From NCBI GenBank assembly GCA_963575745.1, contig CAUYUJ010000001.1, forward strand, positions 2,356,001 to 2,420,000: a stretch of DNA of 64,000 nt, written 5' to 3'. Positions 16,375 through 63,502 of this stretch are shown in pieces; positions within the stretch are counted from its first letter, which is position 1, and every line of letters begins with the position of its first letter. The notes below the pieces were generated by a model. It did no database searches. It was not told the DNA's origin and saw only the letters and a program-made list of their open reading frames with translations. The position numbers were made by a program, and so were the translations under genes. This DNA comes from Prorocentrum cordatum (taxonomy: Eukaryota).

Positions 16375-16754
16375 CTCTTTGCGTGAAGGAGAACGGGTGC
16401 CAGATTCCAGACCCTGCACCCTAACGCAGACCCAGCTTCATGGATCCTAGGCCCTGGGCCCTCCACAAGGACCAGCTCCTCATCCCGAGCAGCTCTTTGA
16501 CGGTCTCCAGGGCCAGGGGGAGAGTCCCTGGGAGCCCACCGGCGGGCAGCAGAATCAGTACCCGTTTGTGGTGGGGTGGTACGTGCCAATACCATAGCGC
16601 TAATCCGCGGACCTTTTCTGGGGTGCGTTCCGACCAACAATTCGATGATAATCCAGCCGCGGCGACGAGAGCTCTCCAGGACGAGCAGCTGTATCAATGC
16701 CTCGTCCTTCTGCTGCATTCGCCTTAGGACACGCATGCTCCATCCATGTCGGTC
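16375..16754 (-). other. Probable GA-AG intron (~380 bp)
   Basis: GAG|GACCGA...TTCTCCTTCACGCAAAGAG|GAG joins VVWLNVDPQE to EGYQKLHAGHRDWV, restoring the NUDT9 C-terminal W...LYASH-like motif. Boundaries could shift by one codon. Confidence 0.6.
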
Positions 16755-18500: not shown

Positions 18501-18914
18501 TGCGAGCGCCTGTCGCGTCGACGCGAAGAGCGTGGCCCACCTTAGGAACAGACGCTTGCCAGAACTCGGCTCGAGCAAGGATGCGGAAGCGAAGCGCGCG
18601 CCTGTAGCTGCCAGCGAAGGAACAGACCCGCCATCGTATCTTCATCACGTAGTAAGGGGCCTCGCCACTCATACACCGTGGGTGATGACAGTCTGTAGGA
18701 TGCTTGAAGGCCCCGACCCTGGTTTGCCAGGATTCGCGGCCGCGCTTTGGCGCTCCCTGGGGTGTAGCGCGTGAGCATTCTGGAGGCCAACTTTCTCATA
18801 ACTCGCCCAGTAGTCTTCAAAATGATAGCTCAAGCAGTCCTTGGAGGTCTAGAGGCCCTCGGGAGGTTCCAGGAGACCCCAGAGGAACCCGGGAGGCCCA
18901 CAAAAGACACCAAG

Positions 18915-24200: not shown

Positions 24201-27200
24201 CGCACTCACACTTATCACCAAGGGCCATTGCCTGGATCCCATTCAGATATCAACGGCACAGCCCTTGCTAGTTATAAGACGTATCCTCACCAGCCCTTTT
24301 GCAGCCAGAGTCCTTCCTATGGTCAGAAGATGCTGGGACCTGATGCAGCAACAAGCGCGACGAGGACATGATCTACGAACATTCAAACCACATGATGGAG
24401 GGCCCATGACAAAGCTCAAATCAGTACTTGACGACCTGGGCTGGACATGGCCACAGTTTGATGCCTTCAAACAAGCTCATGGACAATCTGTATATCTTAC
24501 CAAGCATCCTCAGGGGTGGTGGCAGCATGTACTACGTGAATCTATACGGAGATGGATTTGGCGAAGTGATGCACACCTACTTGAGAGGAAAGACATGCAA
24601 GGAGTGAAGCATGGGACCAATTATCATATTACGACCGCCATCCTCAGGAGGGCGGATAATGCTGCAATTCGTGAAGATGAAGATGAAGATGAGGAACCCA
24701 AAGTCCAACCGCCTCTCCTTCCCAATGCTACTGACGTGGTCGTGCCCAAAGTTACCCGTGACCAAGTTCCTTTCTTGCGTGCGTACTTGCAGGGAGCTAC
24801 CATCACGGGACATCGGTTACGGCACCTCACGGGCAAATCTGAGCATGCGGTCTGTCCAGTTTGCGGAGCAATGGACGAAGATATTGATCATATTCTCTTT
24901 CACTGTGGCCGCTGGGATTCACTGCGAGCACCACTACATGAACACTACAGCGTTGAAGGCCTACTTCAACTCCCAGTATGCCTCCGTCAATGTGGTCTCA
25001 TGCCAGACAGGCCTGAGTACGGTGCCTTCTTCAGCGAGCTACTTCCTGACGAACCTGATCTACCCCCACCTCCACGCTATGAAGGTGGGGAAAGTGCAGA
25101 CCAACTACTTATGCAAGACGGATTTTTGATTGTAGCTGGCGGCGGGGCGTGTCCAGGGCAAGCCTCACACTTGCGCTTGAGACGGTCAGGCTACTCATTG
25201 CACTACGGCCACAATCACAACTGCAACGTGGGGATGCCACTACGGAGTGTATCTCAAGGAGCGCAGAGAGCTGAAGTTGCAGCCCTCAGACATTTTGCAT
25301 CATGGTCTTGGGGGCCACAGCTCTACTTGCCGACAGTTTTCAGCCCTTCTCCGAGATGAATCCATATCACCACATCAACATCAAGATCTATGGGCCTCAG
25401 TATCCGCGGGAGTTCTTGCGAAAGGCCCAGAGACGTTTCGCATTCAAAAAATCAAAGCACATCGCAATGCCAACACTGTTGATGAAGGTGAATTACCATT
25501 GTGGGAACGCAACCAGAGAGCAGATCAAGGTGCAGTGCGAGCAGCACGACAACTTCAAGTACCATCGGAGGTGCGTCATCAACACCCCAAAGGCCAGCAC
25601 CTCTGCTTTCTCTTGCAATACACGGCTGCGCACATTCTTGAACGCAGGGCCAAGGAGCTGACTAACATGGGCAGGGACAAGCGTGACGAGCGTTGCGTGC
25701 AGGCCCATGCCCTCATCGAGGCTGACTTGGAACAGGCCTATCACCACCAGCATGAGGATGACGAGCATGACCCGTGAGCTCACCTCGACATGGGCCAGGG
25801 TGGAGAGTACCAACCTGACCGACCTCAAATGCCACCTCCAAGCGAGCCTCAGCCTGCAGCACCACAGCCACCATCGACAGCGAGAATATTGCGACACAAG
25901 TCCAAGCCACCAGCTATGACACCAAGCTTAGCGAGCAGGACGACAGCAACACCAGCGAGTGCAGCAGCCTCGAGCTCAGCAGCATCAGCAAGCGCATCAG
26001 CACCAACTGGAGCCTCAGCCAGCACAGCAACAGCATCGCCAGGTGTAGCATTGAGTACGTCAGCCTCATCTTCTGGAGCTCCCAATTTTGATCCTGTACT
26101 TGATAACCCAAGCACCTGGAGTCCAAAGGTTGCCTTTCCTGGACTCACGTGGGGCCCAGTGGGGCCAAACGTAGCAGAGCGGGTCTTCCAGCCAACGTTA
26201 CCCGAGATGCTGACAAACAAACAATGGAGTTATCAACAATCGTTGTGCCCAGCAATTATCTGGCATTTTGCCCAGCTGCGCTGGGCGACAGACGACACGA
26301 CCAAGACGCCTCTTTCAGCATCGTGGGCTGAATTGGCACTGGATTACAGCATTGCAACTGGTTTGCCTCTTGTGACGCCACAAGGGAACCCGCAGACAGC
26401 GACGCTTGAGCGCATGGCGAGATACTTCTCGACAGCAGCAGCCCGCGTCACCAAACTCTGCGAATGCAAAGTGGCACCTAGAAGAGTATTTGTTGCATGT
26501 TGTTCGCTGACGCCCTTGGGGATCAGGCAGGTCCCAGGCTTTCTATGCATGCCCACCTTCATGAACCACGATCACACGATGAAGACGCTGTGCGCCGTGG
26601 CGCTATCGACGACGGAGAAGAACGCTGGTATCAGAGTACCGCCGCCATGGACCTCGATACCATCACCATGTTGGACACCACCCAGACTGGAAGCTAACAT
26701 CAGAGACAACGCCAGACCGACCGATCTCGTGGCCTGTGTCGCCTTTGTTGTTCGAGAATCTGGGAGTTACCGCGAACGTGAACAGCGCTCTACGGCCATG
26801 AGCGTTGTCAGAGCGACTGTGGAATACACGGGGCAGGAGCTACGCGACCCCCAGGGGCTCACAGGTCGGAAGAAGCTGAATGAGGAAAAGGGAATATTGC
26901 ACAATCGTGAAGCACGCCAACAAGGATACCATGTCCTGGCACCACTGTATGGCGGAGACAAGAAGCAACACCCGTCCCTGAGGTGCCTGACCTGTGGGAG
27001 ACGAACAAAGACGTTCACCATCTCTGCGTGGGGCCGATTGCTGTGCAACCGTGATGGGCATCGCGGGTCACATCCAACGGGCCAACGACGGAAGCTGGGG
27101 GACTGGAGCAAGATAGTGGAGGAACACAATGCACGTACCACGGTTCCTGGCAACAGATGCCATGTACGTTCACCCTTTCGCGCAGACAGAGTTGATCAAG

Positions 27201-39817: not shown

Positions 39818-39940
39818 GCTTCCAGGCGGGGCCGGCCCCCCCGGCGGAGCCCCGCGCCTGGATGAGGCGCGCTCGACGCCCCGGACCTGCGCCATCTGCC
39901 CGTTCAGCTCCGGTGAGCTGGACCTCGGGGGCGCCCTCGA
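39818..39940 (+). CDS. Possible isolated host exon
   Basis: Pyrimidine tract + CAG|G, translation ...RLDEARSTPRTCAICPFSSGELDLGGALE, GAG|GC donor-like end; no family recognised. Confidence 0.2.
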
Positions 39941-40249
39941 GGCGACCGACGCAGAAATGCGTTCTACATCGCCTCGTCTCAGGGGGCAGGCGGGAGGCCA
40001 GCGGGCCGAGCGCAGGTCTACTCTTTGGTCGGGCATGTCCCCCTACAGGCGGACTCTGGACGAACAATCAAAAATACACCAAAAATGCTCAAGCAATGCC
40101 CCAAAATACCATCAAAATCGTCCCCCGACTACTTTTGAAACTATTTTTGAATGTTCCTCCCAATCTTCGGCTTCGGTCCCAGTCCCGACCCTGGCCCCAG
40201 GCCTGGCCCCGACTCTGGACCCCGGTCCAGGCTCTCGGTCCCAGTCCCG

Positions 40250-40854
40250 GCCTCCTCCTCCTCCTCCTCCTCCTCCTCCTCCTCCTCCTCCTTCTCTTCA
40301 TCCTCCTCCTCCTCCATCCTCCTCCTTCCTCCTCCTCCTCCTCCTCCTCCTCCTCCTCCTCCTCCTCCTCCCGCTCCCCCTCCTCCTTTCCTCATTCTCC
40401 TCTTCCTCCTCCTCCTCCTCCTCCTCCTCCCGCTCCTCCTCCTCCTCCTCCTCCTCCTCCTCCCCTCCTCCTCCTCCTCCTCCTCCTCCTCCTCCTCCTC
40501 CCCCTGAAACGCCGCCGCCGCCGCCGCCTCCTCCTCCTCGTCCTCCTCCTCCACCTTTCCTCCTCCTCCTCCTCCACCTCCTCATCCTCCTCCTCCTCCT
40601 ACTCCCTTCCTCCTCCTCCTCCTCCTCCTCCTCCTCCTCCCCCTCCCGCTCGCCCTCCTGCTCCTGCTCCTCCTCCTCCTCCTCCTCCTCCCGCTCCTCC
40701 TCCTCCTCCTCCTCCCTCCTCCTCCTCCTCCTCCTCCCTCCTCCTCCTCCCTCCTCCTCCCCTCCCGCTCCCCCTCGTTCTTCTTCCCGCCGCCGCCGCC
40801 GCCTCCTCCGCCTCCTCCGCCTCCGCCTCCTCCTCCTCCTCCTCCTCCTCCTCC
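40250..40854. repeat. (CCT)n microsatellite, left flank of Copia B
   Basis: Seen directly. Confidence 0.95.
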
Positions 40855-41029
40855 TGCAAAACCCCGAGGAGGGTTCTGCGCGGGAGCCCAGTAACAGTGA
40901 TGATGGTCGGTCACCTTTATACTCCCGCACGGCGAAGCGAGTCTCGGTGGTTTCAGCCGTTAAACACTTGAGCCAAAGGTAACAGGGTCACTATTCCTCC
41001 CCAGTCACCTGAACGCTTGCATGTTAACA
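40855..41029 (-). repeat. 3' LTR of Copia B
   Basis: Direct repeat of 51432-51606. Confidence 0.97.
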
Positions 41030-41038
41030 CCCCCCCTC
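41030..41038 (-). promoter_or_regulatory. Polypurine tract GAGGGGGGG
   Basis: Directly abuts the 3' LTR on the - strand. Confidence 0.85.
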
Positions 41039-41435
41039 GGACGCTAGTCCGTACGGGCTGACGGGGAGGTGTCTTCAAACATAAAAACAAGTTAAACTAC
41101 GCAACATGCTGCACGCAAATCGTCATATCGTTGAATTCGAAAGGTCTCGTGACAGCGTTTACGAGCACCACGTATCTCACACATGTAACATGAGCTCGAG
41201 TAAACGCTCTTGCAGTCACAAGTTTAAACGGAGCATCTAAAGTTTACACGGCAGGCTAGCATTTGGATGATTTTGATTGCTTTCGCTGTTTATTCGCCAA
41301 TACCTGCGGTAACTACAAAAGATGCACATGCACGCAGGCTCAGCTCAACAAGCTACCGCCACACGATTGTTAAGCCGAGTTAGAGGGGAGATGAGGGAGA
41401 GCGTAAACTACAGCATGCTGGTCACCTGCCACCTT

Positions 41436-43907
41436 TTACGAGCGGCGCGGGCGCCTCACCGACGGGGCCCGTGCGCCCCTCGACCTCGGTAGCCCGCGAT
41501 GCCCCACACTGGCCGCTGTGTAGGACGACACCCTGTTAAGGGCCTGCATCGGGCTGTAATAGTCGGTGTCCAGGTACGCGTTAATGCGCTCCTCGTCGTC
41601 GAGCCAGCACCCCTCGTCAAAGCTCTTGATGGACCCGTCAACAATGTTGTGGTAGGTGCCGATGGCCCTCCAGTAACTGGCGTGGGGGGCCTTCAACAGA
41701 GGCCCACCGCCTGGATTGTTACGGAGGTGCTCCTCGACCGCAGCGCCGGTAAACGGGTTCACAGTCCAGGTCGGATCGGTAAGCCAGTTGGGGAAGTCGT
41801 CGCACGGTAACCAGCCAAACCAGCAAAGCTTCTCACGATGATCGCTTTTACGCTCGGTGATATGATCAGCAGGCCAATTGTCACGGTAAAGTGCCCTCAT
41901 GGGTCCCTGATCGTTAAGAGCGACATCTAAGATGGTCTGGTGCCAGTAGACTGGAGGCCTGTTGATGCTGCCCTTTAACTCCTCGGTTCTCCTGACCTCG
42001 AGGTCCTCGATGAAGTAGTTGCGGTAATGCACCTGGAACCCGTTCATGTAACGGCAGTAGAGCTTGGCAAGGTCAGGCGTCGCAAACCGAATTACGGTAA
42101 CTCCAGTCGAGATGTAACCGTGCGGCCCGCGGGTGTCTTCCACCAGGTGCTTAACAGAGATCACGGTGGGGTTGCCGTGGGGCAGCATCCCTGCCCACGT
42201 TAAGAGGAGACCGTTAAGCTGCTTCTCGTTCATCTCCGGCACCTTGTTGACGTACACCTGCGTGTCCGGGCAACTGTGGAGCTCAAACCACGATGGGTGA
42301 ATATCGTCAACGTGGAGTGGTGGCACGTACTCGTCGTCAAACAGGGGCTGTACGTGCCCAACTGCGTCAACCCATTCATCATGCTTGGTCAACTCTTTGT
42401 CCGTCAACTGAGATCTCCAGCTGCTTGGGCCCTTCAACACGGCATAGCCGATGAAACCGTAAGCGTGTTGGCCGTAGATGTCAACGAATACTTCATCGTA
42501 ATCGTTAAGCTCCCGCCCCGTGTTGCCCTGAATAGACCGACCGCCAGGGGTCGTTAAACCCGTCTTCGCCACATGCCCGACGAAGTTGCCCTCAAACCTG
42601 CGCCAGTTGTCGCGCGTCTTCATCGTTAATGCGACCACTTCCCTGGGGTCAGGTTCCACCTTGTAGTTAACGTCGTAGTCGTCGCTCCTGTCGTTCAGCA
42701 TGGGCATGTGACCGTTGACGTGGTACAGCGGGCGGTACACGGCCCTGGCGACGTTCCGAGAGTATCCCGCAAGCTGGTCATTCGTGCGGTTAACGACTTG
42801 AGGCTGCGGTGGCGGGATGCGCTGGACCGGTGACCTCTTGGGCTCCGGAGGCGGGGGCTTCATGCCGCTAACGCTGCTCGATGCTCTTGACTCGCCGAGC
42901 CCCGGAGGAGGTGGCTTGGCCGGCCTCGCGTTCACAACAGGGGTAGGACCTTTTGGTGCTTCGTCACGTTGACTGCTCTTCGCACGATCTTCATCCATCT
43001 TCATGCCGATCTGCAGTAACTCTTCCAACTCCCGTTTACGCTCATGCATGGCCTTTGGCGCTTTCTTGTAAACAGGTTGTGGCTCCGTTGACTGCGGGAT
43101 CTTGTTCGGCGACATGGACCGTCGGATCCCTCCGGCTTTGGTGGTTGCGCCGGTAAGGTCCTGAGCCGGGGGAGCTTTCCCTGATGGAGCCACGTTAACC
43201 TGCATCACTGGGGGCGCGCCTGAGGCCATGGACTCGGCTGCCGCGGTGACGGCAACGGGTGGCGCCTTGGCGAGTGCTGCCGTTGGAGGCAGCTCAGGTA
43301 ACGGCGGAGGCACCTGCGGGATGATGGTAACCGAGGAGCTGATCGGGTCATTCAAGAACCTCTGTAAACCCTCAAGCCTCTCGGTAACTCCCACTAACAT
43401 GCGTAGTGCCGCATCCCGTTTGCCCTCGAAGTCCTGCAGAGGCGTGATGTTCTCGGTAAGACGTCTGGCGGTGTTCAAGAGGTAACCAATGTTCTCGTTG
43501 ATGCGCCTGTACTTGGTCGCATTCTCCGCCGTGTTAACCTCCGAGTCGCGATTCTTGATGTTCAGCTCTGTAATCGTCGCCACCAGAGCGTTAACCTCGT
43601 CCTGCGCCCTCTTGAGGTTTTCGTTGACGTCGTCACTGGCGTGGAGCAACGCAGCGTTCTGCCGCGTTAAGTCCTCGATCCTCCGCGCCATGTCATCGGC
43701 GGCCCTCTGCGCCTCGTCAACATGTTTGTCATGGGCCCCGTGAAAGTTAATGGCCATGTTGGTGAGGGTCACGGTAAACGCATGGGCAACGTTGGCGATG
43801 TCGTCAACACGGCGATTGAGGTTCTCACGCGTAACCGGTCCATCCCCAGGCGGGCTCTGGTCAACCACGGAGCCGTTGATCGTGACGTTGACCTGGTGAG
43901 CCGCCAT
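41436..43907 (-). CDS. Copia B ORF3: coiled coil, Pro-rich linker, RRM-like domain; function unknown
   Basis: Uninterrupted ~820 codons between pol and the 3' LTR; QVYVNKVP (RNP2-like) and TGVTVIRFATPDLAKLYCRYMNG (RNP1-like); first ATG at 43907. Confidence 0.85.
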   Translation of the reverse strand: MAAHQVNVTINGSVVDQSPPGDGPVTRENLNRRVDDIANVAHAFTVTLTNMAINFHGAHDKHVDEAQRAADDMARRIEDLTRQNAALLHASDDVNENLKRAQDEVNALVATITELNIKNRDSEVNTAENATKYRRINENIGYLLNTARRLTENITPLQDFEGKRDAALRMLVGVTERLEGLQRFLNDPISSSVTIIPQVPPPLPELPPTAALAKAPPVAVTAAAESMASGAPPVMQVNVAPSGKAPPAQDLTGATTKAGGIRRSMSPNKIPQSTEPQPVYKKAPKAMHERKRELEELLQIGMKMDEDRAKSSQRDEAPKGPTPVVNARPAKPPPPGLGESRASSSVSGMKPPPPEPKRSPVQRIPPPQPQVVNRTNDQLAGYSRNVARAVYRPLYHVNGHMPMLNDRSDDYDVNYKVEPDPREVVALTMKTRDNWRRFEGNFVGHVAKTGLTTPGGRSIQGNTGRELNDYDEVFVDIYGQHAYGFIGYAVLKGPSSWRSQLTDKELTKHDEWVDAVGHVQPLFDDEYVPPLHVDDIHPSWFELHSCPDTQVYVNKVPEMNEKQLNGLLLTWAGMLPHGNPTVISVKHLVEDTRGPHGYISTGVTVIRFATPDLAKLYCRYMNGFQVHYRNYFIEDLEVRRTEELKGSINRPPVYWHQTILDVALNDQGPMRALYRDNWPADHITERKSDHREKLCWFGWLPCDDFPNWLTDPTWTVNPFTGAAVEEHLRNNPGGGPLLKAPHASYWRAIGTYHNIVDGSIKSFDEGCWLDDEERINAYLDTDYYSPMQALNRVSSYTAASVGHRGLPRSRGARAPSVRRPRRS

Positions 43908-43994
43908 GCCTTCGTTCACGCTCAAGAGTAAGAGGTAATGGATGGAGGAGGCTTTAATCGAGACGGCTTGCTTGACAGAAATGAGCTGCGAATG

Positions 43995-46158
43995 TCAACA
44001 TTCGGTAGCCGGCGCAAGATTATGCCGACCTGTTAGTGCACATTGATTCGTGTTTCGTAGGTGTGTGCTCATGCTCTCACGACTGACATACTTGGTTAAT
44101 GCATCTGCTGTGTTCTCATGTGTCCCTACTTTCACAATTCGAAGTACCCCCTCCTTTACCTTCTGCTGCAACCACAGTTGACATACTTCAATGTGTCTCA
44201 CGTTCCCTAGACCTCGTCTGCTCGCAATGGCAATTGCAGCCGTGGCATCACTCTTCAGGGTGATCTCAACTTCCAAGTTAAAATCTCTCAACACGGCCTG
44301 AAGTCCTAGACCAACTGAACCTCCTTTTACGAGTCCATAATATTCTGCTTCCCCTGACGATAACGCAATCACACTTTGAGTTGTGCTCCACGATTTTATA
44401 AGGTGTTTACCCCACATCACTACTCCTCCACTCGTAGACTTCCTAGTTCGCTTACATCCTGCGTAATCCGTGTCAGTCCAAATCGTCAACTCTCGGGGCT
44501 GTTCTTGATACTGATACACATAACTGCTTCTGCTGTGGTACTTCAAATGCTTTCCTAGCTTGACTAGGCCTTTCCAAGAGCCCATGGTTGGCTTTGACAT
44601 GGTTCTAGCAAGTTCCTTCACTGAATACTGTATGTCCGATCTGTCTTGAGCTAAATAATTCGCTCTGGCCGTCAATGCCTGATATCTCTTAGTCATGTTG
44701 GGCGAAAGTTCTACCTCATCTCCCTCTTCAACTGGAATGCGCTCACCTGGTACCTCAGTCCTCACTTTTACTCCTTCAAGCTCAAGCTCTGTGCCTTTGA
44801 TCTGCCTCATATCTCAACCCTTCCTCAGTCCATTCCACTATCCTGTTAAGAATCCTGATCGCTTTCATGTCCTCCTTTCCTGGTCCAAGTCGTCCTCTCA
44901 CTTTTACCTCAAACTCCTCCTGTATTTTATTTTCAAACCAATCGAGATCATGGTCACCCCCTAGTAGCGTAAAGTCATCCCCATGAACCGTTAACCATAA
45001 GGCTCGAATCTCGTGTTTGAACACGCATGCTGACGCAACTCCGCTTTTGAACCCAACTTCGATGGCAAAGTCCATGTAACAGTCTTCCCAGTTGCTTGCT
45101 GCGTCTCTTGTTCCGTACATTGACTTCAGTAGTTTTCCGCGCATGCCTGGTTCATAATCCTCGTCCGGTAATCTGATAAATATGTCTTTCTTTGCAGGGG
45201 CGTAAAAGTAAGCTCGTCTAATGTCAATGAATGCCAGCTTTAATCCTTTCTCGCGCTCGCCATTCGTGAATCCCACTCCTTCGGTAACTGCCATTGAGAA
45301 AAGCAGTTTCTGTGCTTCCAGCGGAGGCGTGGCCGCAAATATATTCTTTTCCTTGGAATTGTATTTAACTTGCTGGGCCACTAGCCTTGACCTGTGGTCT
45401 GGGCTTAACTCATCTCCTTTGTTAATGTCTATCCACCTGGTTCCGATGGGTGCCTTCCCCGTAACTTGCCAACGCACTTCCTCTTTCACTTTCTCGTAAA
45501 CTCTGTGTTTTCTGAATTGTTCTATTTCTTCTTGGCGCGCTTTCACAATTAGTTTAGGATCGAGTTCGTTTCCAGTAACATCGTCCCAGGCTTGAGTTAT
45601 CTCTCCATTTTCCTTGTGAACAACGTTGATCGCATTCATGGGGGGAGGTTTAACTGTGCCAACCTTTTCACACGCTGCACAGGTGCTGGGCGTCTTGAGC
45701 CAGCCCCCATGTTCACATGCACTGCGCTTCCACTTGTGTGGAGCAACCTCGCCAACAGCCTCATACGTAAAGGTGGTAGAAGTGTTAACCGGTCCCTTCT
45801 TGAACGTTCTCCTTCTCTCTCTACCTATGATTTCGTTCACGGGCCTGTCCTCGATAACTTTCCCTGTGTCCAAGTCAACGGTAAGTCTCCTAATGCATGA
45901 ACTCCATTGTGGTCCACTTGGTCCTAGCAACATCAATCTTTGGGTTCCATAATCTTTTCTCGTCCAGGTTAACTGGTGCTTGTGCTTTCTATCTTGGTCC
46001 GCATGTTCACCTGCCCAGTTGGTTTCGCTTATCTGCATTTCACTTTGCTCCTCTTCGTCAACTTCCATGTTTGTTGTTTCCTCTTCTTTAAACGTGCCCC
46101 CTTGGCGTCCGTCAACCTTCATTTGTTGCACAAGCCCCCTCAATATCGCTCGGCACAA
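43995..46158 (-). CDS. pol: Copia B RT + RNase H (one frameshift near 44790)
   Basis: WDDVTG, IGTRWIDINKG, RSRLVAQ, AATPPLEA, IDIRRAYF, SMYGTRDA, VHGDD; RNase H TDTDYAG, LSSGEAEYYG, SDATAA, NTADALTK. Confidence 0.95.
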
Positions 46159-46780
46159 TATGTCTGGGTAAACTTATGATCGGTGAGTTCTTCCGCCACC
46201 AGTTAACGCCATGTGTCGATGTTGCCCTTTGCATCTCAACTTAACTCGCGACCTATGGCCGGGCTGTTTGTCATGAACTTGGTCGGTTTCTTAATGAACA
46301 TCTCTTCACCTTTGACCATCTGCTTCAAGTCGTAACATCACAAATCTCCATTGTAAACTTTAACATCTTTGTTTCTGAGCAACCGTTGCACTACTGAAGT
46401 GCTCCAACTGGTCGCCCCCGCGGGGTGTTCAAATAGAAAGTATAAACCATTTCGCCGTTGAGTTTCGCAAAGCTCCATCGCGAACGTCAAATGCTTGATC
46501 CCGTAACCCAACATTTGTTTTACTCGGTCAGCGCCTAATCTTTTTAAAGTTGAACGTCTGGAGTCTGCTGAAAGCTGCGCACATGGGGCTCACCACTAGT
46601 AACGGGGCTGCTTTGGATTTGACTATCTTTTTTGCTTTCGCTCGCATGGCTGGCACATTAAAGTCCCATGGGTTACCATGTTGATCGCGCGATGTTAAGT
46701 CCATCGCTAATCCCGGTATCAGTCCCATTTTCTCTGCCATGCCTGTAACTCTCACCGGCGAATATGCCTCAGTCACGTGC
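46140..46780 (-). pseudogene. C5 cytosine DNA-methyltransferase-like domain embedded in Copia B pol (disrupted)
   Basis: VTEAYSP (I), WDF, VVSPMCAAFS (IV, with Cys), YFLFEHPAGATSW (VI), KKPTKFMTNS (VIII-like), YPDILCRAIL (X); 2 frameshifts and 2 stops by manual translation. Confidence 0.75.
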
Positions 46781-48846
46781 GCCTGAGTCTCATGTTGACT
46801 TGCGCCATAAAGCTTGGTGGCTCTCCTTGCCTCGTTCAATTGGTGCACGACGTTCAACTCCCCGCCTGTCAACCACTCAACCAGCTCAGAGTCAAATCCC
46901 ATCATGTTGAGTCCCAATCTGATGTCGTTTACTTCTGACATTTCTTCATCTTGTTCCGGATTAAGTTGGCGATGTTGAGTTGCCTGTTGATCTTCTTCGT
47001 CATGGTCACCATCTGCTTTTCGTTTAATGGGTTCACTTGGGGGGTCTTTCATTTCTTCATCTTCTATTTCGAACTCGGTCCACCCGGTCCAGTAACCGTT
47101 AAAGGGGTTTCCCATGGCCCATGTTTGGTCATCTCCCTCTTTGCCATACCAAGCGTCTTCGTGTTCACGTATTTCACCGCTGTTAATCAGGATGGCATGA
47201 GTAAATCTCCTGGGTTTAAGTTTGTCCCAATCTACCGGACATCCACCATTGGTGGGAAAGGCTAACTCTTTTCTTGGTCGCCGGTGTTGACATATAACTT
47301 TGTTTCCTTTTACTACCCACTCATCCTTCGCATCCTCAACCTTGGCGCTCGGCGGAGGTGGCACGTTGATTCTCAGTCTTTTCGCTTGACTGTCTGATTC
47401 CTGATTTTGACTTTCCGACGCGCGGCCTTTACTTTCGAGTCTCAGTTGGGCCGATGCTAGCCTTGCCTGGATATTTGGGCTCTCTTGTTTCTTTAGCCAC
47501 TCGATAACTCGAGCCCTGCAATCGGCGTTATGCGGTTTGTGCTCTTTGTCTCCTCTAACAAGACATTTACACCCGTAACATCCCGGTGTCGGTCCCATTT
47601 TTAAATATTCGTGCTTCTTTACTGCTATTCCTCGCGCAATCAGCGGCTTCGTCTCAGGTGCCGTTAACTCTTGCTCTGGCAAGTCCATGGGCACCATGAT
47701 TCTAGACTGTAATTCCATTCCTGCCGTACTGGGGTCAGGCTGCCAAGGTGGCCCCTTCATCTCGGTAATCTCGTCGCTGTTCCATCTTTCCGCTTCACTT
47801 CCTTTCCGTTTAAACTCGCGTGCCTTGATTGCTCCATTTGGTGTCCCAATAATTAGCTCCTGACTCTTCTCGTTTATTCCCAAAAACACTCCACTTTCCC
47901 ATCTCATTTCAAGTTTTTCGCGGCCCTTGTGTGCAGGCGTCTTTAAGTACATGACACATTCGCCGGATTCAGGAATTTGCTTGTTAAACTTTCTCCCCCT
48001 GCATCTCTCATGGGCTGTCTTTCCATCCGTGTCTATCGTGAACTTGTTAATCAGAGAAGACGCATAGCTCACCAGCCATGGTATTATCGCGCGACTCTCA
48101 CTAAACTCGGTCTTGTAATTGGCATCCAAGGCGCTCTTTAATGTTCTAACTTGCCCTTGCACCGTTCTAACTGCTCTCTCGATTTCACCGTTGGCCTTTG
48201 AGTCGCCTACAGGACTGACTTCAACACCCATGTCGAGGTCACGCGACGCTTTAATTCTGTTGGCCAGCGCCGTGATTGCCGCTTCTCCATCGCTTTTGAG
48301 TATAACCTTCTTATATCCGGTAAAGCTGATCATGTCACATCCCACCTTTACTGAGTATGAGTCCACTCCCTTTTTCAGCAACACTCGGCTCCACGTTAAT
48401 TTGGCCTCCCTGCAATGCATGACTAGAACTGGGTTGCCATTGCTGGCACTTTCGCCGTCTTCCTTTTTCCCTTTAAGCCACATGTAGTCCATTGAAATCA
48501 CTGGTACGTTTCCGTTCCTTTCCCTTTTGCGTCTCCGGTGATTGCGCCTGCGTGCTTTTCCTCTAACACAATGTGGGCACCAGCTTCGGTAAGGTAAATG
48601 CGTTGTGTTGTGCGTCTCAACCCCCTCCCTTGAGGGCCTCATGTCACAGTAAACTTTCTTCGGTAACTCCGCTTCATCGCTCACACATACATCTTCCACA
48701 TCACTCAACTCACTCTCGCTGCCCCCACTTTCACTCCCTTCACCTTCTTCGGCGTTAAAGACATTTAAGTTTTCGCTTGGTCTTACGGGTAATGAGGGGC
48801 TTAGTAGAACAGATCCGCCTCCAGGGTTCCCGGCCGCGGAAAACCC
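46781..48846 (-). CDS. pol: Copia B integrase region (start of pol, entered by -1 frameshift)
   Basis: HNTTHLPYRSWCPHC; SMDY / KSDGE / SKANGEIERAV; TPGCYGC...H...CR; the frame is open back to the slippery site at 48846. Confidence 0.93.
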
Positions 48847-51410
48847 TCAGCTGCGTTCACTTCGCTCCTGGGATTGACGGCCTCCGCTGGCCCCCTCGGC
48901 ACTGTGCTGTTGAACTGAAACGTGCCATTCTTCTCGTGGATAGTTGTGCATTTACCCGTGGCCTTATTCATGATGTGACTCAGGGACCTCCCGTTAAGAT
49001 CCTTGTCAAACACAACTCTGTTTCCAGCGTTTACCATTTCCCTGACGGATCCCAGAACTTTGTTGACTTCCGCTACCTGAATCGGCATGCTGACTGCGTT
49101 CCCATGTTCATTCCTGCCGGTGACCACTCGCTGCCCGTAATTCTTTATCGTCGTTCCATTTGCTGCGCTGTAATGTCTTCCCTGCTTTGACGCATCCGTT
49201 TGTTTAATGGGGAAATATGTGCCTACTTTGGGGGGTCCCACCGTGTTGTACGCCCCAGAGTCCACGGTAACCGCAATTGTCTCATGCGTTGTACTCTGAG
49301 GTGGCACCGCGTTAATTTCTGGATCACAGTCTCGCATCTCGATCAGCCCAATCTCTCTGCATTTCTCCAGCCAACTTTTTTCCTGTTTCACACTTTTACT
49401 TATCCTCTGGTCCCATTGATTCACATGATTGCAGTCCCCGTTGCATTGATGCTCATGGTAAACTCTTTTCAGGCTCATTGCGGCCTTACGCGCCATTTTC
49501 TTTCTGGCGTGTGAGGTCAGAGCCCATTGCCCGTTAACCTCCTCAGTTGTGAGTTGGTCTAGTGGCACGTTCACTGCATCCCTCATTTCAACGCTGAGAA
49601 CATGTTGCGGTTGGCCAAATGAGGTGGTTTGTTCACTTTCCGCGTTCACTGTCGGTCTCTCTTGCTCAACTTCGTTGGCGGTCTTCTTGGGGCCCGGGCA
49701 GTTAACGGCGATGTGCCCTTTGGCACCGCACTTGTAACACTCACGCTCGCTATGGGGGGTACATTTTCCTTGGCTTCCATAACTTCCACCCCGCGAGCCA
49801 CTCCCTTTACCACCTTGTTTGCCTCCAATCTTACCTTTCATGTAGGACCCGTAGGTGGCCCGGTAACCCTTGCCTTTTCCGCCTTTGCCACCTTTACCTC
49901 CTTTGGTGAACTGTTTAGGTCTTGTGCAATTTCTAGCTAAATGACCCATGCCTCCACAATTGTAACATTTGGGGCTTGTGCCTTTACCTTTGCTTTTGTT
50001 TACGGCGTCGACTTCTTCGTGATCTCCACTGTTACTCTCATTGGCCCAGGGCCCGTAACTCCAAGATCCATCTTCTGGCCACCAGTTTCCGTCCTCGTCA
50101 ACCCATCCTGTCTGGTCCCAGATATTTTCGGACCCTTGACTCGTCTCGTTGATATTCCCAATGTCCATCGCATCTTTATTCTTGGTGTCTGAGTCGAGTT
50201 TCTTTTTACGCGCCCAGTCTTCACACTTAGAGTATAGCTTCTGGAATGTGTCAATGTTAAGCGCGTCGGGCGTTCGCCAGCACGCCTGCTGCCACTCGTC
50301 GAACCAATCGTTCGCATGCACCATTATTGCCCTGAGTGCGGTGATTCTAAGGGGGAGAGGCAGTGAGTAATCTTTACCATGCTTTTCAAGATTTTCTGCC
50401 AATGCACTCCACTCCTCAAGTCGGGTGACAGTATCAGCAATCTTCTTGGGCGGCTCAGGGTTCATGGCGTGTGTCATCTTTGATGACAGAGTCGCTCCGG
50501 TAACAGCCGAGTACCACTTGTAAACCTTTTGCCAAGCCATAATTCCATCACCATCCATAAATCCCTTTAATTTTCCTCTTGCTTCTGCACCTTCGAGCTT
50601 CTCGTTAAGGATGTACCATAAGTCTTCCTCCATTTGAGTTTTGTCTCCCTCGGTAAACTCGTGCTCTCCTTTGTTGTCATCCTCTGCTTGTTTAGCTGGA
50701 TTCGCCTTCAAGTAATCGCTTGCTGTTAATCGGCCGTTCATTATGCGTATGATGTCATCATCGTCCTCCTCCGGTACAACTCCGTCGAGTGTCTCCAACT
50801 TCTTGTTCAGCATTTTCAGCGCCGGTCGGTAACTCGGTTTTACTTGGGCCAGCGCGTTTAAGAACTTGTCGTTCCAGTCTCTGAACTTTGCTCTTTCTCC
50901 ACTGAAGTTCTTTAACGCCTGTAATGCCTTATATTCGCTTATCGGTTTACCGCTCCCGTGCTTGCTTCCACTTCTTCCTTTGATTGCTTCCGAAAGCTGA
51001 CCAATTTTTTCAATCAACTTATCTTGTACCTCGCTGTTGGTCTCCAACTCGGTGACTCTTTCCACCAGCCTGCGAGCATCCCTTTCAAGTGCAGCGTTTC
51101 TCTTCGTAATCGCTAACAACATGCTGTTGGTCTTATGAGCACTCTGTAACATTTGGAATGCCTCGGCGTTCGATACTTCCCTTCGGTCCTGTGCCACTCG
51201 CTCGTTGATGAACGTTGCAAATCCATAGTGGTTTGCAAGTAACGCTGTCTGAACGTAACTGAAGTCTCCGTTCAGGTATGCTTGCTCGCACAGGTCATTG
51301 AAGCGGTTAGGGTCCATGTTGACCCATGCGTCTCTGTCTGCCGGCACATTGAGGTTAACCGGCGGGTCGCCCTGCCCAGGCCTAGCTGCAGCGGCCGCCG
51401 CCGCCGCCAT
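48801..51410 (-). CDS. gag: Copia B Gag-protease (two CCHC knuckles, aspartic protease)
   Basis: CYNCGGMGHLARNC, CYKCGAKGHIAVNC, DAMDIG and VTVDSGA; intact 869 aa. Confidence 0.95.
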   Translation of the reverse strand: MAAAAAAAARPGQGDPPVNLNVPADRDAWVNMDPNRFNDLCEQAYLNGDFSYVQTALLANHYGFATFINERVAQDRREVSNAEAFQMLQSAHKTNSMLLAITKRNAALERDARRLVERVTELETNSEVQDKLIEKIGQLSEAIKGRSGSKHGSGKPISEYKALQALKNFSGERAKFRDWNDKFLNALAQVKPSYRPALKMLNKKLETLDGVVPEEDDDDIIRIMNGRLTASDYLKANPAKQAEDDNKGEHEFTEGDKTQMEEDLWYILNEKLEGAEARGKLKGFMDGDGIMAWQKVYKWYSAVTGATLSSKMTHAMNPEPPKKIADTVTRLEEWSALAENLEKHGKDYSLPLPLRITALRAIMVHANDWFDEWQQACWRTPDALNIDTFQKLYSKCEDWARKKKLDSDTKNKDAMDIGNINETSQGSENIWDQTGWVDEDGNWWPEDGSWSYGPWANESNSGDHEEVDAVNKSKGKGTSPKCYNCGGMGHLARNCTRPKQFTKGGKGGKGGKGKGYRATYGSYMKGKIGGKQGGKGSGSRGGSYGSQGKCTPHSERECYKCGAKGHIAVNCPGPKKTANEVEQERPTVNAESEQTTSFGQPQHVLSVEMRDAVNVPLDQLTTEEVNGQWALTSHARKKMARKAAMSLKRVYHEHQCNGDCNHVNQWDQRISKSVKQEKSWLEKCREIGLIEMRDCDPEINAVPPQSTTHETIAVTVDSGAYNTVGPPKVGTYFPIKQTDASKQGRHYSAANGTTIKNYGQRVVTGRNEHGNAVSMPIQVAEVNKVLGSVREMVNAGNRVVFDKDLNGRSLSHIMNKATGKCTTIHEKNGTFQFNSTVPRGPAEAVNPRSEVNAAEGFPRPGTLEADLFY
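48814..48846 (-). promoter_or_regulatory. -1 ribosomal frameshift signal: G GGU UUU + stem-loop
   Basis: In-frame X XXY YYZ heptamer at 48846-48840; the -1 frame has TGA immediately 5' and is open into integrase; hairpin CCGC-GG-CCGGG-AAC-CCTGG-AG-GCGG follows. Confidence 0.8.
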
Positions 51411-51419
51411 GGCAACCGC

Positions 51420-51431
51420 GCTCCGCTACCA
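51420..51431 (-). promoter_or_regulatory. Primer-binding site TGGTAGCGGAGC
   Basis: Abuts the 5' LTR; identical to the Copia A PBS. Confidence 0.88.
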
Positions 51432-51606
51432 TGCAAAACCCCGAGGAGGGTTCTGCACGGGAGCCCAGTAACAGTGATGATGATCGGTCACCTTTATACT
51501 CCCGCACGGCGAAGCGAGTCTCGGTGGCTTCAGCCGTTAAACACTTGAGCCAAAGGTAACAGGGTCACTATTCCTCCCCAGTCACCTGAACGCTTGCATG
51601 TTAACA
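51432..51606 (-). repeat. 5' LTR of Copia B
   Basis: Direct repeat of 40855-41029. Confidence 0.97.
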
Positions 51607-59770: not shown

Positions 59771-60748
59771 AAATCCCACCAGCCCTCTGGGCGTAGGTGG
59801 TCTAGAGCAGATCCTCTTCCACCCCTCCCTCTTCCCCCTTGGGGAGGGGTTTACCCCTCCCCCTACCCCCTCCCCTGGACCTGGACGGGGGGGGCCGCGG
59901 GTAGTTAGAGCGTCCCAGATGGCCCAAGACGGCTCCAAGAGCGCCTCAGAGAACCCAAGATGAGCTCCAAGATGGCTCAAGATAGCGCAAGATCGCTCGA
60001 GATGGCTCCTAAGATGGTTCCAAGAAGCCCAAAGACGGCCCCAAGATAACTCCAAGTGGCCAAACAGCTCCCCAAGGAGGCCCCGAAGAGGCCAAAATCG
60101 TCCCAAAACCTAAGGAAAATCAATGATTTTTGCTTTCTCGCCTTTCGCTTCCGATGGCCATCCGAGGCCTGGAGATGGCTCCAAGATGGCCCAAGAGGGC
60201 CCCAAGAGAGCCCCAAAAGAGCCCCAAGACGGCCCCAAGAGCGCCCAAGAGCACTCCAAGAGCGTTCCAAGAGGGGTCCAAGAGGCGATTTTAGGGGCTT
60301 CCGAGGGGGGACGCTAATTAAACCCCCCCTCTTGTTTGATCGACTCCCTCCAAGATGGCCCCAAAAGCGCCCCGAAGGCTCCCCAGAGCGCCTCAAGAGG
60401 GTCCCAAGAGGCGCCCAAGATGCCCCAAGGCGCCCAAAAAGCCCTCCAAGAGGCCCTCAAAAGACCCCCAAGAAGCTCCTTCCCCTCCTCCTCCTCCTCC
60501 TCCGATTCTTCCTCCTTCTCCGTCCTCCTCCTCCTCCTCCTCCTCCTCCTCTTCCCCCTCCTCCTCCTCCTCCTCCTCCGACGACGACGACGACGACGAC
60601 TCCTCTTCCATCCTCCCCCTCTCGGGGTCTGTGACAGCTTCCCCCGCCCTTTGTTATTCTGCATGCTCCCCGACTTCCCTGATCACCTCAACTCCCCTGA
60701 GCATCGTTTCTGGATGGGCTGGTGGGGATACGCGAAGCGTCGACAATT
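59771..60748 (+). mobile_element. 978-bp non-autonomous insertion with 4-bp TSD (CGTC), asymmetric inverted repeats and GAA hairpin
   Basis: CGTC at 59767-59770 and 60749-60752; CCCACCAGCCC/GGGCTGGTGGG; ACGC-GAA-GCGT at 60730-60740; removal restores the ORF2 frame. Confidence 0.88.
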
Positions 60749-62195
60749 CGTCCCTGGGCCCGAACTCCCGCCAGAGAGACGCGTTTGTCAAAGGGGGGCC
60801 ATAACTTGGCAGCCTTTTTCATTTTCCCCGCCCGCCCTCGAAGCCGAGCCTGGCGCTGCTCGCTACCAGCAGCAGCAGGGCTCGCTTGCGCGAGTTGTCG
60901 CCGACGCTGTGAAACTTCAGCGTGCAGCGTGTCAGAGAGCGATGCAAAGTCCAGCGGCGAGACCAGATCGACCGTGCTCGCAGCTTCGTCGTAAACGAGT
61001 TGTTCACGAGCGAGAGGGTGGGACAGGCAAACACGTTCGGGGAGGCGCACATCTTGCCGAAAGACAGCCCGTGCACACGTACGAAGGACAATGAATTTGG
61101 CGTCGAGCGACTGCGGCTTGTGTATGATAAGCGAGTTTCGAGCATGTCGGGCTGCTTCTATCATGAGTTTCTTAAAGTATGCGTGTCTGAGAGGTGCGCT
61201 AAGATGTTCATATTCAGCAGCAGCAAGTGCACGAGGCATATACCATGCAAATTCGGCCGAACGAAAGATCTCACGCGGGATAGGTCGGGCATCTTCAGGC
61301 GGCCGCTGACGAGCAACAAGAGTCGCACAGACTGCAGCAAGGTCAGATATGTGTTTCGCTAGGAGCTGTTCTGGGATCCCCACCGCCTCCCCGCTGGTAA
61401 CCATCTGCGATGACACCCGCCCAGGAGCAGAGCAGAACAACCGATCGATATAGGATAAGCGCTGTACCCCCGCATGATAATGAGTAGGTGCTTCTAGCTG
61501 AAACTCGACCATCTTACGAAGAACTTCGCGCCACTCGGGGGCCCCTGGGACGGGCGGCGGCAGGGGGGCATTGAAAAGCTCGTCGCTCGGGTAGAGCGGC
61601 GCGGGCGGTTGCAGCCCGAAGTTAAAGTCCCCGACAAAAATGACCAGCTTATTCTGTGGGTCTCGACTAGCATCCATTAGATCGTTAGCAATACACTGAC
61701 ACACATGACGACGTTGAACACGAGAGATACTGTGATTGTGAACGTTGTAGTGAGAGATCCATGTCGGGCCATCAAGAGATGAGAAACGCGTGTGTAATAC
61801 TCGACCAGGAACCAGAGAGAGAGAAGAGACGAGGGGAGGCGCGCTGCCGAACCTCCGCTCCCGTTCACTGCTGGGACTAAACTTCGGATAGAGTGTGACA
61901 ACGCCTCCTGCTGGGCGCGGCCTGGTGATACCATCGTCGTCAAGCGCAGCTGGAAGAAAAGAGGAGGAGCAGGAGAAGGGGAGATTAGCGTGATGCAAGA
62001 AATCTCGCACCTCTGCAGTCGGTCCGTGGACTTCCTGCGCGGCCACGATTGCCCCAGGACGGAGCAGGCGTTTTAAATAGCGGAATTTCGCAGTGCGAAC
62101 GAGAGTCTGACGGTGCAACAAGGCATTCAAATTCCAAGAGCCGGTCCTCAACGGCGTCTCGGAAGATCCGCTCCAGAGAGCAAAGAACGTGCTAA
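60749..62195 (-). CDS. LINE ORF2 APE endonuclease and linker
   Basis: GSWNLNAL, AAQEVH, AGGV, VGDFN, PTH, SYIDRLF and SDL (canonical SDH). Confidence 0.9.
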
Positions 62196-63334
62196 AGAGA
62201 CCACTGGGTCTGACTGTCTCCCTGGATGGCGACAGCCAGCGGCTCCTCGATTGCTTCGCGGGAGATCTTCTCGAGAGCCAGATTCGCTTCCGCCCAGCGG
62301 ATCCGCGGCGCGTCGTCCGCCCGTGGAGTGATCTCCACGAGCTGGCGCCAGTTAGTGGAGATGGTGCCGCGCAGCTTGTCAACAAAAAACTTTTTGTCCT
62401 GAAAGCGGTTCTCAAAGAACCTCTTGGCAGCCTTGAGCGCAACTTCACGCTTGACCTGGCACTGGTTTTTGTCCGATCCGACAAAGATCTCCGAGCGGGC
62501 GCCCGAGATCGCGGGGGCAAAAAAGCGCATCCACTCTTCACCAGGACGCTGCGGGCGCAGCAGGCTGAGTGCATGCTGTGCACGGCGGGCGGCGAACTGA
62601 GAACTACCCTTGAACTTGATCGTGAACCTCTTGTCCGACGGCTCCCCCTGGAGCTCCCATTCGGACGACTCGATGTTGAGACGCTCCAGCCACGGAAGAA
62701 GGGCTCCTTGAACTTGATGTTTCGCAGTCTGCTCCTTGCAGCGGACCACGATGATGGACGCGTCGATGGCACGGTTGAACGCCGAGTCCAGCGACAACTT
62801 CGGGAAGACCGTGGGCATCTCACTGGGGGTCTCCTTGACCACGTTGAGTTCGCGCTTGAGTTGTTTGACCTCTTCATGAAGAACCTGGAGCTGCTTGGTG
62901 TGGCCGCGTTGGATAGTTTCCACTCCATTGAGACGTTGTTCGACCTGCGATGCCATCGCCGAGCATGTAGTTTGCACTCTGGTGGCCAATCCTTGAAGAC
63001 TGGAGTTGAGCGCGGACGTCGTGTTCGTGACCTGCTCGAGCAGCTCCGCACGCAAGGCCTCGATGGAGCCCTGGAGGTTGGCTGCATGGACGATCTCGAA
63101 GTCAGCGTCACCAGCGGGTGGAGGGCCAGCGCGACGCTTGTTGATACCACTTTGCTCTCCTTGGACACCACCACCCAACTCAGCACCAGGAGGGGCAGCG
63201 CCACGGACAGGAGTAGCCACTTGTGAAGACCCACCAGCGCCCACTTGCGACGGCGGGAAGGTCGGGATGTCGTCGAGGTCGATGTCTGTGGCCATCTGCA
63301 TCTGGCTCGGGATGGTGTGAACGCCATCGCCCAT
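62192..63334 (-). CDS. LINE ORF1 (coiled coil plus probable RNA-binding region)
   Basis: First ATG after the SL (GCCATGG); heptad-like VEQRLNGVE...LHEEVKQLKREL; intact. Confidence 0.85.
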   Translation of the reverse strand: MGDGVHTIPSQMQMATDIDLDDIPTFPPSQVGAGGSSQVATPVRGAAPPGAELGGGVQGEQSGINKRRAGPPPAGDADFEIVHAANLQGSIEALRAELLEQVTNTTSALNSSLQGLATRVQTTCSAMASQVEQRLNGVETIQRGHTKQLQVLHEEVKQLKRELNVVKETPSEMPTVFPKLSLDSAFNRAIDASIIVVRCKEQTAKHQVQGALLPWLERLNIESSEWELQGEPSDKRFTIKFKGSSQFAARRAQHALSLLRPQRPGEEWMRFFAPAISGARSEIFVGSDKNQCQVKREVALKAAKRFFENRFQDKKFFVDKLRGTISTNWRQLVEITPRADDAPRIRWAEANLALEKISREAIEEPLAVAIQGDSQTQWSL

Positions 63335-63480
63335 GGCTCGGAGAGAGCACTGGTGGTGCACAGGATGAGAGATCTGGAAGGTGTGCCGCGGGCAAGCCCC
63401 AAGCGATTCGAGAAATCGCTACGGAAGGGTCCAAAGCTAATCGCAACACCTCGGTTCCCCGAACCTTCGTTACGTTTAGC

Positions 63481-63502
63481 CTTGAGCCAAAATGGCTACG
63501 GA
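63481..63502 (-). other. Dinoflagellate spliced leader copy TCCGTAGCCATTTTGGCTCAAG
   Basis: Perfect match to DCCGTAGCCATTTTGGCTCAAG; followed by the LINE 5' UTR rather than an SL-RNA intron, so it is a retrocopied leader and not an SL gene. Confidence 0.97.

Follow-up and report, generated by a model that had tools for sequence, protein, structure and literature searches.

The 64,000-nucleotide stretch of the Prorocentrum cordatum genome analysed here (GenBank assembly GCA_963575745.1, contig CAUYUJ010000001.1, positions 2,356,001 to 2,420,000 of the forward strand; hereafter the window, numbered from its first letter) contains a complete 10.75-kb Ty1/Copia long terminal repeat (LTR) retrotransposon on the minus strand (40855-51606). 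Its coding order is gag-CCHC-protease (PR), integrase (IN), a domain resembling cytosine DNA methyltransferases (DNMTs), reverse transcriptase (RT), RNase H and a further open reading frame (ORF), ORF3. The DNMT-like domain (46108..46785, minus strand, about 225 amino acids (aa)) is delimited by its match to a family profile and is broken in this copy. The element is placed in Ty1/Copia because the integrase lies upstream of an RVT_2-type RT, and this agrees with the original prediction, made from the letters of the sequence alone, that the element is a Copia retrotransposon, as do the LTRs and the PR-IN-RT-RNase H order.

The location of the domain between integrase and RT, part of the same prediction, is borne out on both sides. 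Upstream, the integrase core (47850..48620, approximate limits, minus strand, within the ORF 48846-46528) was recognized from the HHCC and DD35E residues read in the translation, and the Pfam scan of this region gave a weak SH3_retrovirus match alone (E=0.0036). Downstream, the RT (44896..45459, minus strand, within the ORF 46173-44782) matches Pfam RVT_2 (PF07727) with E=2.8e-12 and 47.2 bits, against a cut-off of 31.6. The sequence enclosed by these two enzymes is a real conserved domain.

All five motifs on which the methyltransferase proposal had been built are present inside pol, on the minus strand and in the order given: EAYSP (46756..46770), SPMC (46579..46590), FEHP (46422..46433), KKPTKFMTN (46266..46292) and YPDILCRAI (46144..46170). 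Three further motifs of the family lie among them on the same strand, namely MDLT (46707-46693), PWDF (46671-46660) and C-x4-HRH (46239-46213). The motifs are split over two reading frames, the domain running in frame f2 from 46785 to ~46540, in frame f0 from ~46540 to ~46240 and again in frame f2 from ~46240 to 46108. With a profile of intact relatives, the span 46785-46108 scores E=1.1e-51 in f2 and E=2.5e-32 in f0, values that exclude a chance occurrence of the motifs.

Four lesions interrupt the domain in the window copy. Two are frameshifts (~46545-46530 and ~46253-46236, minus strand) and two are in-frame stops on the same strand, one (46338..46340) at a Cys kept in 73/75 (97%) family sequences and the other (46174..46176) immediately before YPDILCRAI. 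We compared the region 46050-46850 with contigs from four public runs belonging to four studies (X1, X2, X5 and X6), which cover the whole of it. At 46338, the plus strand carries G and not T in all of the covering depth of the four runs, so that a Cys codon replaces the stop. At 46176, C and not A is found in 826.7 of 833 depth of X1 and in all of X2, X5 and X6, which gives a Glu codon. At both frameshift places, too, many of the run contigs differ in length by a single base, which is added behind 46236 and missing at 46541. The four lesions are private to the window copy, and the related copies in these runs, of the kind that the original prediction had advised looking for, are open at all four.

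The domain belongs to a large family. When 1.84 billion representatives (50% identity clusters) were searched by phmmer with a 110-residue piece of the window itself, 1628 matched at E<=1e-3, of which 307 reached E<=1e-10 and 3 reached E<=1e-30; most are short fragments. The long members are single ORFs that join IN, the domain and RT (P0016 and P0073) or the domain, RT and RNase H (P0063 and P0107). A word-based search added 67 members, none of which has a precomputed Pfam domain in the domain region. One marginal match of 26 residues on viral contigs was set aside.

With a closer alignment as query, a metagenome scan returned 67 loci in which the arrangement is nearly invariant. All 33 loci with at least 1.8 kb of upstream sequence have an integrase there on the same strand, and 32 of the 35 with at least 1.2 kb of downstream sequence have RT there; the three exceptions are truncated copies. 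The domain is free of stops in 31 of the 40 loci where one frame spans the whole of it, and ORFs longer than 1300 aa pass through it in 13 loci, the longest reaching 1690 aa. The closest full relative of the window element (locus L031) has a gag-PR 48.5% identical to that of the window copy and an ORF3 homologue, and its pol is open over 1614 aa.

A second Copia element in the window (29101-~38115, minus strand; rve E=5.5e-7, RVT_2 E=1.8e-11) is of a different lineage, and its IN and RT have no DNMT-like domain between them, which shows that such a domain is not general to Copia elements.

We counted motif conservation over 208 family sequences, with denominators that vary by column. In the first motif, E-x-Y-S-P-x-R, the E is kept in 171/176 sequences, Y in 162/178, S in 171/178, P in 165/178 and R in 176/178. 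The Asp that ends strand 2 of the predicted fold described below is present in 187/191, and the W-D-F motif in 186/192 (W), 180/192 (D) and 178/191 (F). The original prediction had named poor conservation of the Cys and of E-H-P as grounds for giving it up; both are strongly conserved, the P-x-C motif in 183/189 (P) and 182/191 (C), and E-H-P in 95/100 (E), 96/100 (H) and 96/99 (P). A later Trp is invariant (89/89), the KKPT..TN motif is kept at T (63/64) and N (61/63), and a further conserved C, C and H (73/75, 53/56 and 48/51) might form a metal site.

Pairwise identity is 36-49% in the domain and 34-57% in the RT region, and in one pair the domain (42%) is better kept than the integrase (34%). 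The ratio of nonsynonymous to synonymous substitution rates (dN/dS) is 0.13-0.40, with a median of 0.22, in the 7 of 465 pairs that have dS between 0.05 and 1.5, synonymous sites being mostly saturated. The ratio of the corresponding proportions of differences (pN/pS) over 105 pairs is 0.49 for the domain and 0.47 for RT. These substitution patterns indicate that the domain is under purifying selection comparable to that on RT and evolves like an essential pol enzyme.

The fold of the domain was predicted for two family members. The first model covers 241 residues of P0020, which among the aligned members is the nearest intact stand-in for the window copy and is 58% identical to the window piece (pLDDT 87.7, pTM 0.85). 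The second is P0202, a family member 32% identical to P0020 (pLDDT 94.5, pTM 0.90). For the first model, the Foldseek matches listed among 27 at E<=1e-3 are all C5 methyltransferases (DNMT1, MET1, DNMT3A/B and DNMT2), the best at 1.7e-4; for the second, the matches listed among 36 at the same threshold are again all C5 methyltransferases, the best being DNMT3B at 5.2e-5. The fold check proposed with the original prediction thus returned C5 methyltransferases for both relatives. An aligner independent of Foldseek aligned C5 enzymes over 180-199 residues, compared with about 150-170 for short-chain dehydrogenases/reductases (SDRs), and for the better model C5 enzymes took the top six places. By Z and by Foldseek the nearest structures are DNMT3A/B, so that in these predictions DNMT3 is the nearest solved structure to the domain. 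Among viral structures (BFVD), six of the eight matches at E<=1e-3 are named as cytosine or DNA methylases, including proteins of 212-218 aa (TM 0.56-0.61); the best match (E=4.1e-8) carries no name.

The models consist of strand 1, a helix, strand 2, a helix, strand 4, a loop, a long helix, strand 5, a helix, strand 6, a hairpin, a strand and a C-terminal helix, an order that fits the class I methyltransferase core. EAYSP lies at the end of strand 1, the motif I position, and the Pro-x-Cys of SPMC comes right after strand 4, which makes its Cys a candidate catalytic, motif IV-like residue. The Glu of FEHP ends strand 5 and is motif VI-like. Two acidic residues, the Asp that ends strand 2 and the one in W-D-F, stand, by position, where contacts to the ribose and adenine of S-adenosylmethionine (SAM) are expected. 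KKPTKFMTN forms the strand after the hairpin and YPDILCRAI the start of the C-terminal helix; these are putative motif VIII-like and motif X-like elements, by order and secondary structure. As modelled, the domain has the catalytic-domain fold of C5 methyltransferases and keeps a Rossmann-type methyltransferase core, a nucleophile-type Cys, the Glu and two cofactor-type acidic residues.

Several results weigh against reading the domain as a cytosine methyltransferase of dinoflagellate Copia elements. PF00145 was not matched by the window pieces in a Pfam scan, nor by 26 family members at E<=1, and a search of the PDB with the family profile found no DNMT at E<=10. When the 208-sequence family profile was compared by hhalign with methyltransferase profiles, which were shallow, the probabilities were 0.2% for Escherichia coli Dcm, 0.5% for 120 Dcm orthologues and 2% for 16 mixed phage and enteric C5 methyltransferases. 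In the motif I region the family reads E-x-Y-S-P-P-R with no conserved Gly, and the canonical SAM loop is absent. The DNMT consensus is FxGxG for this motif and E-N-V for motif VI; in the E-H-P of the family the Glu is kept and the N-V is not. The residue before the conserved Cys is Met in 160/194 sequences and Pro in 19/194, which makes the Pro-Cys dipeptide rare. The equivalence of this Cys (S-P-[M/P]-C) to the motif IV nucleophile, and that of E-H-P to motif VI, is putative and is read from their positions in the models. Only about 30 residues separate KKPT..TN from YP..LC, leaving no target-recognition domain, although about 80 aa are inserted at this point in two family members. Foldseek scored the models against solved DNMTs at TM 0.31-0.50 only, with a root-mean-square deviation of 6-10 A, and the two models are not fully independent because part of the alignment is common to both. 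Finally, the spliced-leader pattern is absent from all 80 metagenome loci in which it was sought.

A phmmer search of the PDB with the piece from the window yielded nothing beyond a chance match (E=0.88), and the Dcm homologue search made for a methyltransferase profile returned only orthologues 74-99% identical, which were of little use. Although non-significant, the hhalign runs each set SPMC on the P-C-Q motif. In the ESM Atlas the 30 nearest clusters are unnamed and the nearest named one is PF00145 at 0.81, which we treat as a lead only.

The claim of the original prediction that the domain is a cytosine methyltransferase thus stands as far as the fold is concerned, but PF00145 was not seen by any sequence or profile method. 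Its claim that the motifs match motifs I, IV, VI, VIII and X was too strong: the Cys and Glu agree by position in the models, but motif I lacks its glycine loop, there is no target-recognition domain, and VIII and X are assigned by order and secondary structure only. Because a profile match, the motif I loop and a target-recognition domain are all wanting, we do not file the domain under PF00145.

We nevertheless regard descent of the domain from a C5 cytosine methyltransferase as highly probable. The negative sequence and profile tests against C5 methyltransferases would also suit an unrelated Rossmann module, either SDR-like or a class I N6A/N4C methyltransferase with an SPP(Y/F)-type motif, whose likeness to DNMTs is convergent; S-P-P-C does resemble the S-P-P-Y/F motif of amino-methyltransferases. 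This we hold to be very improbable, since the Foldseek listings at E<=1e-3 contain C5 methyltransferases only for both models, the C5 enzymes align over longer stretches than SDRs and head the ranking of the better model, PF00145 is the nearest named Atlas cluster, every hhalign run, significant or not, brought SPMC onto P-C-Q, and the conserved Cys and Glu occupy C5-typical positions. A DNMT-derived domain might also have lost its enzymatic function and be retained in pol for structure, nucleic-acid binding or regulation, in the way that DNMT3L serves DNMT3A. The loss of the canonical SAM loop and of the target-recognition domain would be in keeping with such a role, and purifying selection alone does not prove catalysis. 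However, the best-kept residues are of catalytic type (the Cys, the Glu and both acidic residues, the last at 94-98%), whereas inactive DNMT relatives such as DNMT3L have lost catalytic motifs, and we judge a non-enzymatic role to be improbable.

Somewhat less improbable, though still unlikely, is a domain that is DNMT-derived and catalytic without being a SAM-dependent DNA cytosine methyltransferase. Its substrate could be RNA, as for DNMT2, for instance the genomic RNA of the element or the tRNA primer, or it could rely on another cofactor or chemistry at pyrimidine C5, with the conserved Arg of S-P-P-R taking over from the glycine loop. Foldseek returned DNMT2 structures, too, at E<=1e-3, S-P-P-R with its nearly invariant Arg (176/178) stands in place of the glycine loop, and there is no target-recognition domain to read double-stranded DNA. 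For SymbioLINE-Dnmt, the accessible text of de Mendoza 2018 (PMC5890265) reports that DNA methylation went undetected in yeast and raises RNA as a possible substrate. On the other hand, DNMT3A/B, which rank nearest by Z and by Foldseek, are enzymes that act on DNA, and two acidic residues, one ending strand 2 and one in W-D-F, lie where the SAM ribose and adenine would be contacted.

Taken together, the element is probably a recently inserted, mutationally dead copy of a Copia lineage that carries, between IN and RT, a DNMT-derived and putatively catalytic domain. The narrower proposition, that the domain performs SAM-dependent DNA cytosine methylation specifically, appears to us about evenly balanced.

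If this DNMT-derived domain is catalytic, it would be made within Pol, and the active enzyme would be released with, or remain fused to, IN/RT inside the particle; as a part of Pol it would be present at the site of reverse transcription. The conserved Cys would attack C6 of the pyrimidine and a group would be transferred to C5. The target would be cytosine C5 in the nucleic acid of the element, most likely the newly made cDNA, and the enzyme would perhaps act on single-stranded or hybrid intermediates. Little sequence specificity is to be expected because the domain has no recognition domain. In the available text of PMC5890265, most CG sites are described as methylated in Symbiodinium genomes, and in a host genome of this type pre-methylated cDNA would pass as host DNA. 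The idea that cDNA is pre-methylated to resemble host DNA has already been proposed there for DIRS-Dnmt3.

A bolder version is conceivable, and we offer it tentatively, as possible rather than likely: the family would be an unnamed and very large group of marine-protist retroelement enzymes, each a stripped-down DNMT3-like core with S-P-P-R in place of the SAM glycine loop and with the sequence-reading parts lost, which modify pyrimidine C5 on single-stranded or hybrid replication intermediates while reverse transcription is under way, irrespective of sequence and perhaps by means of an unusual cofactor. In that case base modifications would be written by the Copia elements themselves, which might account for a part of the odd methylome of dinoflagellates.

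DNMTs have been reported in LINE, DIRS and Gypsy elements (SymbioLINE-Dnmt, SymbioDIRS-Dnmt3 and KnitGypsy-Dnmt3; de Mendoza 2018, PMC5890265), as far as the accessible text of that paper goes. The same text states that Symbiodinium Copia 'lacks any DNMT domain' and describes Copia as the most abundant retrotransposons of Symbiodinium genomes. This bears out the statement in the original prediction that known cases were mainly of the LINE and DIRS types and that a Copia version may be less described. The available part of Chen 2017 gives the Symbiodinium Copia domains as INT, RT and RH only. DNMT3 in 'LTR Copia and DIRS' elements is mentioned in a 2025 paper (PMC12344493), in a passage that cites the 2018 work. 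A May 2026 preprint (bioRxiv 10.64898/2026.05.21.726589) catalogues DNMTs borne by transposable elements and adds the EpiLTRs; its accessible portion lists none in Copia. Our search of the full-text literature, whose scope stopped short of subscription journals, Repbase reports and supplements, found no description of the domain.

The domain shares with SymbioDIRS-Dnmt3, SymbioLINE-Dnmt and KnitGypsy-Dnmt3, as presented in the accessible text on them, a cytosine-methyltransferase-type domain in the coding region of a retrotransposon (inside Pol in DIRS and Gypsy), purifying selection, a dinoflagellate host and a proposed role in cDNA methylation. Unlike them, it is found in Ty1/Copia and between IN and RT, it is missed by PF00145 whereas theirs were found by DNMT profiles, and it lacks the SAM glycine loop and the target-recognition domain. 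Retrotransposon-borne DNMTs of the kind described in de Mendoza 2018 are recognized by an ORF shared with the enzymes of the element and by purifying selection, and in the present family one ORF runs through IN, the domain and RT and purifying selection is seen. We class the domain as a new, divergent form of retrotransposon-borne DNMT.

Compared with the catalytic domains of DNMT3A and DNMT3B (4u7t_C and 6u8p_A), the identity is 9-14% with no profile-level similarity, and the domain is shorter, at about 225 aa versus about 280. It has neither the FxGxG loop nor the target-recognition loop of these enzymes, and E-H-P where they have E-N-V. Closer in size are small viral 'putative cytosine DNA methyltransferases' (BFVD A0A0A0RJX0, Tetraselmis virus 1 A0A2P0VN45 and Lactococcus phage P087 C3U2K5), which have about 210-218 aa and align over their whole length (TM 0.50-0.61, E 4.1e-8 to 1.5e-4). 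In contrast to the domain, these proteins are free-standing; they are 12-17% identical to it and their names are predictions. Since they align over their full length, minimal folds resembling C5 methyltransferases without a large recognition domain do exist.

Other LTR elements have acquired modules related to DNA methylation. The arthropod Copia elements with a captured methyl-CpG-binding domain (MBD; de Mendoza 2019, PMC6673714) are similar in this respect but, according to the available text, differ in that the MBD is a reader, in its position and in the host. EpiLTRs with DAM, DNMT and chromodomain (bioRxiv 10.64898/2026.05.21.726589) are likewise LTR elements with a methylation-related module; in the accessible portion of the preprint their module is DNMT4-like and occupies the 3' end of pol, and the elements themselves are chromovirus-like or from Euglena.

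The present results show that a DNMT-shaped domain missed by profile searches is carried by one large Copia lineage or more, with at least 1628 clusters at 50% identity and with intact pol ORFs in marine metagenomes. Because profile searches overlook it, the methyltransferases borne by transposable elements may exceed current counts. The retrotransposon cytosine methyltransferases described so far, in the literature as far as it was accessible, come from LINE, DIRS and Gypsy elements and recently EpiLTRs, to which the Copia domain would be an addition. As a natural C5-methyltransferase scaffold reduced to a minimum, lacking both a recognition domain and the canonical SAM loop, the family is also useful for asking what the catalytic core alone is capable of, and it makes the idea of cDNA pre-methylation testable in the most successful class of transposable elements in Symbiodinium genomes.

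The remaining parts of the window element are those of a complete LTR retrotransposon, all on the minus strand. The 5' LTR (51432..51606) and the 3' LTR (40855..41029) are each 175 bp long and differ at 3 positions over that length. They have TG..CA ends and read TGTTAAC...TTTTGCA, with a TATAAA at 51499-51491 in the 5' LTR. A putative primer-binding site, TGGTAGCGGAGC (51420..51431), adjoins the 5' LTR and starts with TGG, its identification being based on position, and a polypurine tract, GAGGGGGGG (41030..41038), lies immediately upstream of the 3' LTR. The motif GGAGG is found at both ends of the element but inside a GGA repeat, and because the element sits in such a repeat this apparent 5-bp duplication is uninformative. 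The insertion tract (~39900-40854 and 51607-~52750) is of low complexity with a purine/pyrimidine skew, GGA/GAA-type repeats and a 9-nt periodicity.

The gag ORF (48801..51410, ATG at 51410) encodes two CCHC knuckles (zf-CCHC E=1.8e-12) and the aspartic protease motif VDSGA. It overlaps pol, which is in the -1 frame, by 46 nt (48801-48846), and the overlap opens with GGGTTTT (48840..48846). The same -1 relation between gag-PR and pol is found at 2723-2780 of locus L031, with similar peptides in both frames. This relation and the overlap peptide are conserved there, which suggests that the step from protease to integrase is a programmed -1 frameshift and not a lesion. The RNase H part of pol (43995..44813) is in a different frame from the RT ORF, with an overlap of 32 nt (44782-44813). 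RT and RNase H share one ORF in relatives (P0063 and the long metagenome ORFs), so that the frame change in the window copy is probably a further frameshift lesion.

ORF3 (41439..43907), downstream of pol and within the element, has 823 aa from its first ATG, with a coiled-coil-like N-terminus, a proline-rich middle and a C-terminal domain. The Pfam scan gave no family for it. Over its C-terminal 380 aa, ORF3 shares 32% identity (E=1e-55) with an ORF that follows pol in locus L031, and it is therefore a conserved gene of the sub-lineage. Weak leads to the RNA recognition motif type in the ESM Atlas (0.78-0.84) were not used.

The window is otherwise rich in transposable elements, with LINE-like elements besides the second Copia element. 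One LINE-like element (21251-25359, plus strand) has weak Exo_endo_phos, RVT_1 and zf-RVT matches in successive ORFs. An exact copy of the 21-nt dinoflagellate spliced leader is found at 63481-63501 on the minus strand (chance expectation 0.01) and marks the host as a dinoflagellate. It stands at the 5' end of a LINE-like ORF (60688-63495) with a weak Exo_endo_phos match and has the look of a leader left over from a retro-copied transcript. TTGGCTCAAG, with which the leader ends on its 3' side, also occurs in both LTRs of the element described above (40967-40976 and 51544-51553, minus strand), within CCTGTTACCTTTGGCTCAAG upstream of TATAAA. This 10-mer has 3 occurrences in the window against 0.1 expected, and in the LTRs it may be a degraded spliced-leader relic captured in U3. 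Elsewhere in the window, an open frame of 856 aa (16071-18641, minus strand) falls just short of the NUDIX cut-off of 21.1 bits, with a borderline match at 20.7 bits (E=4.5e-4).

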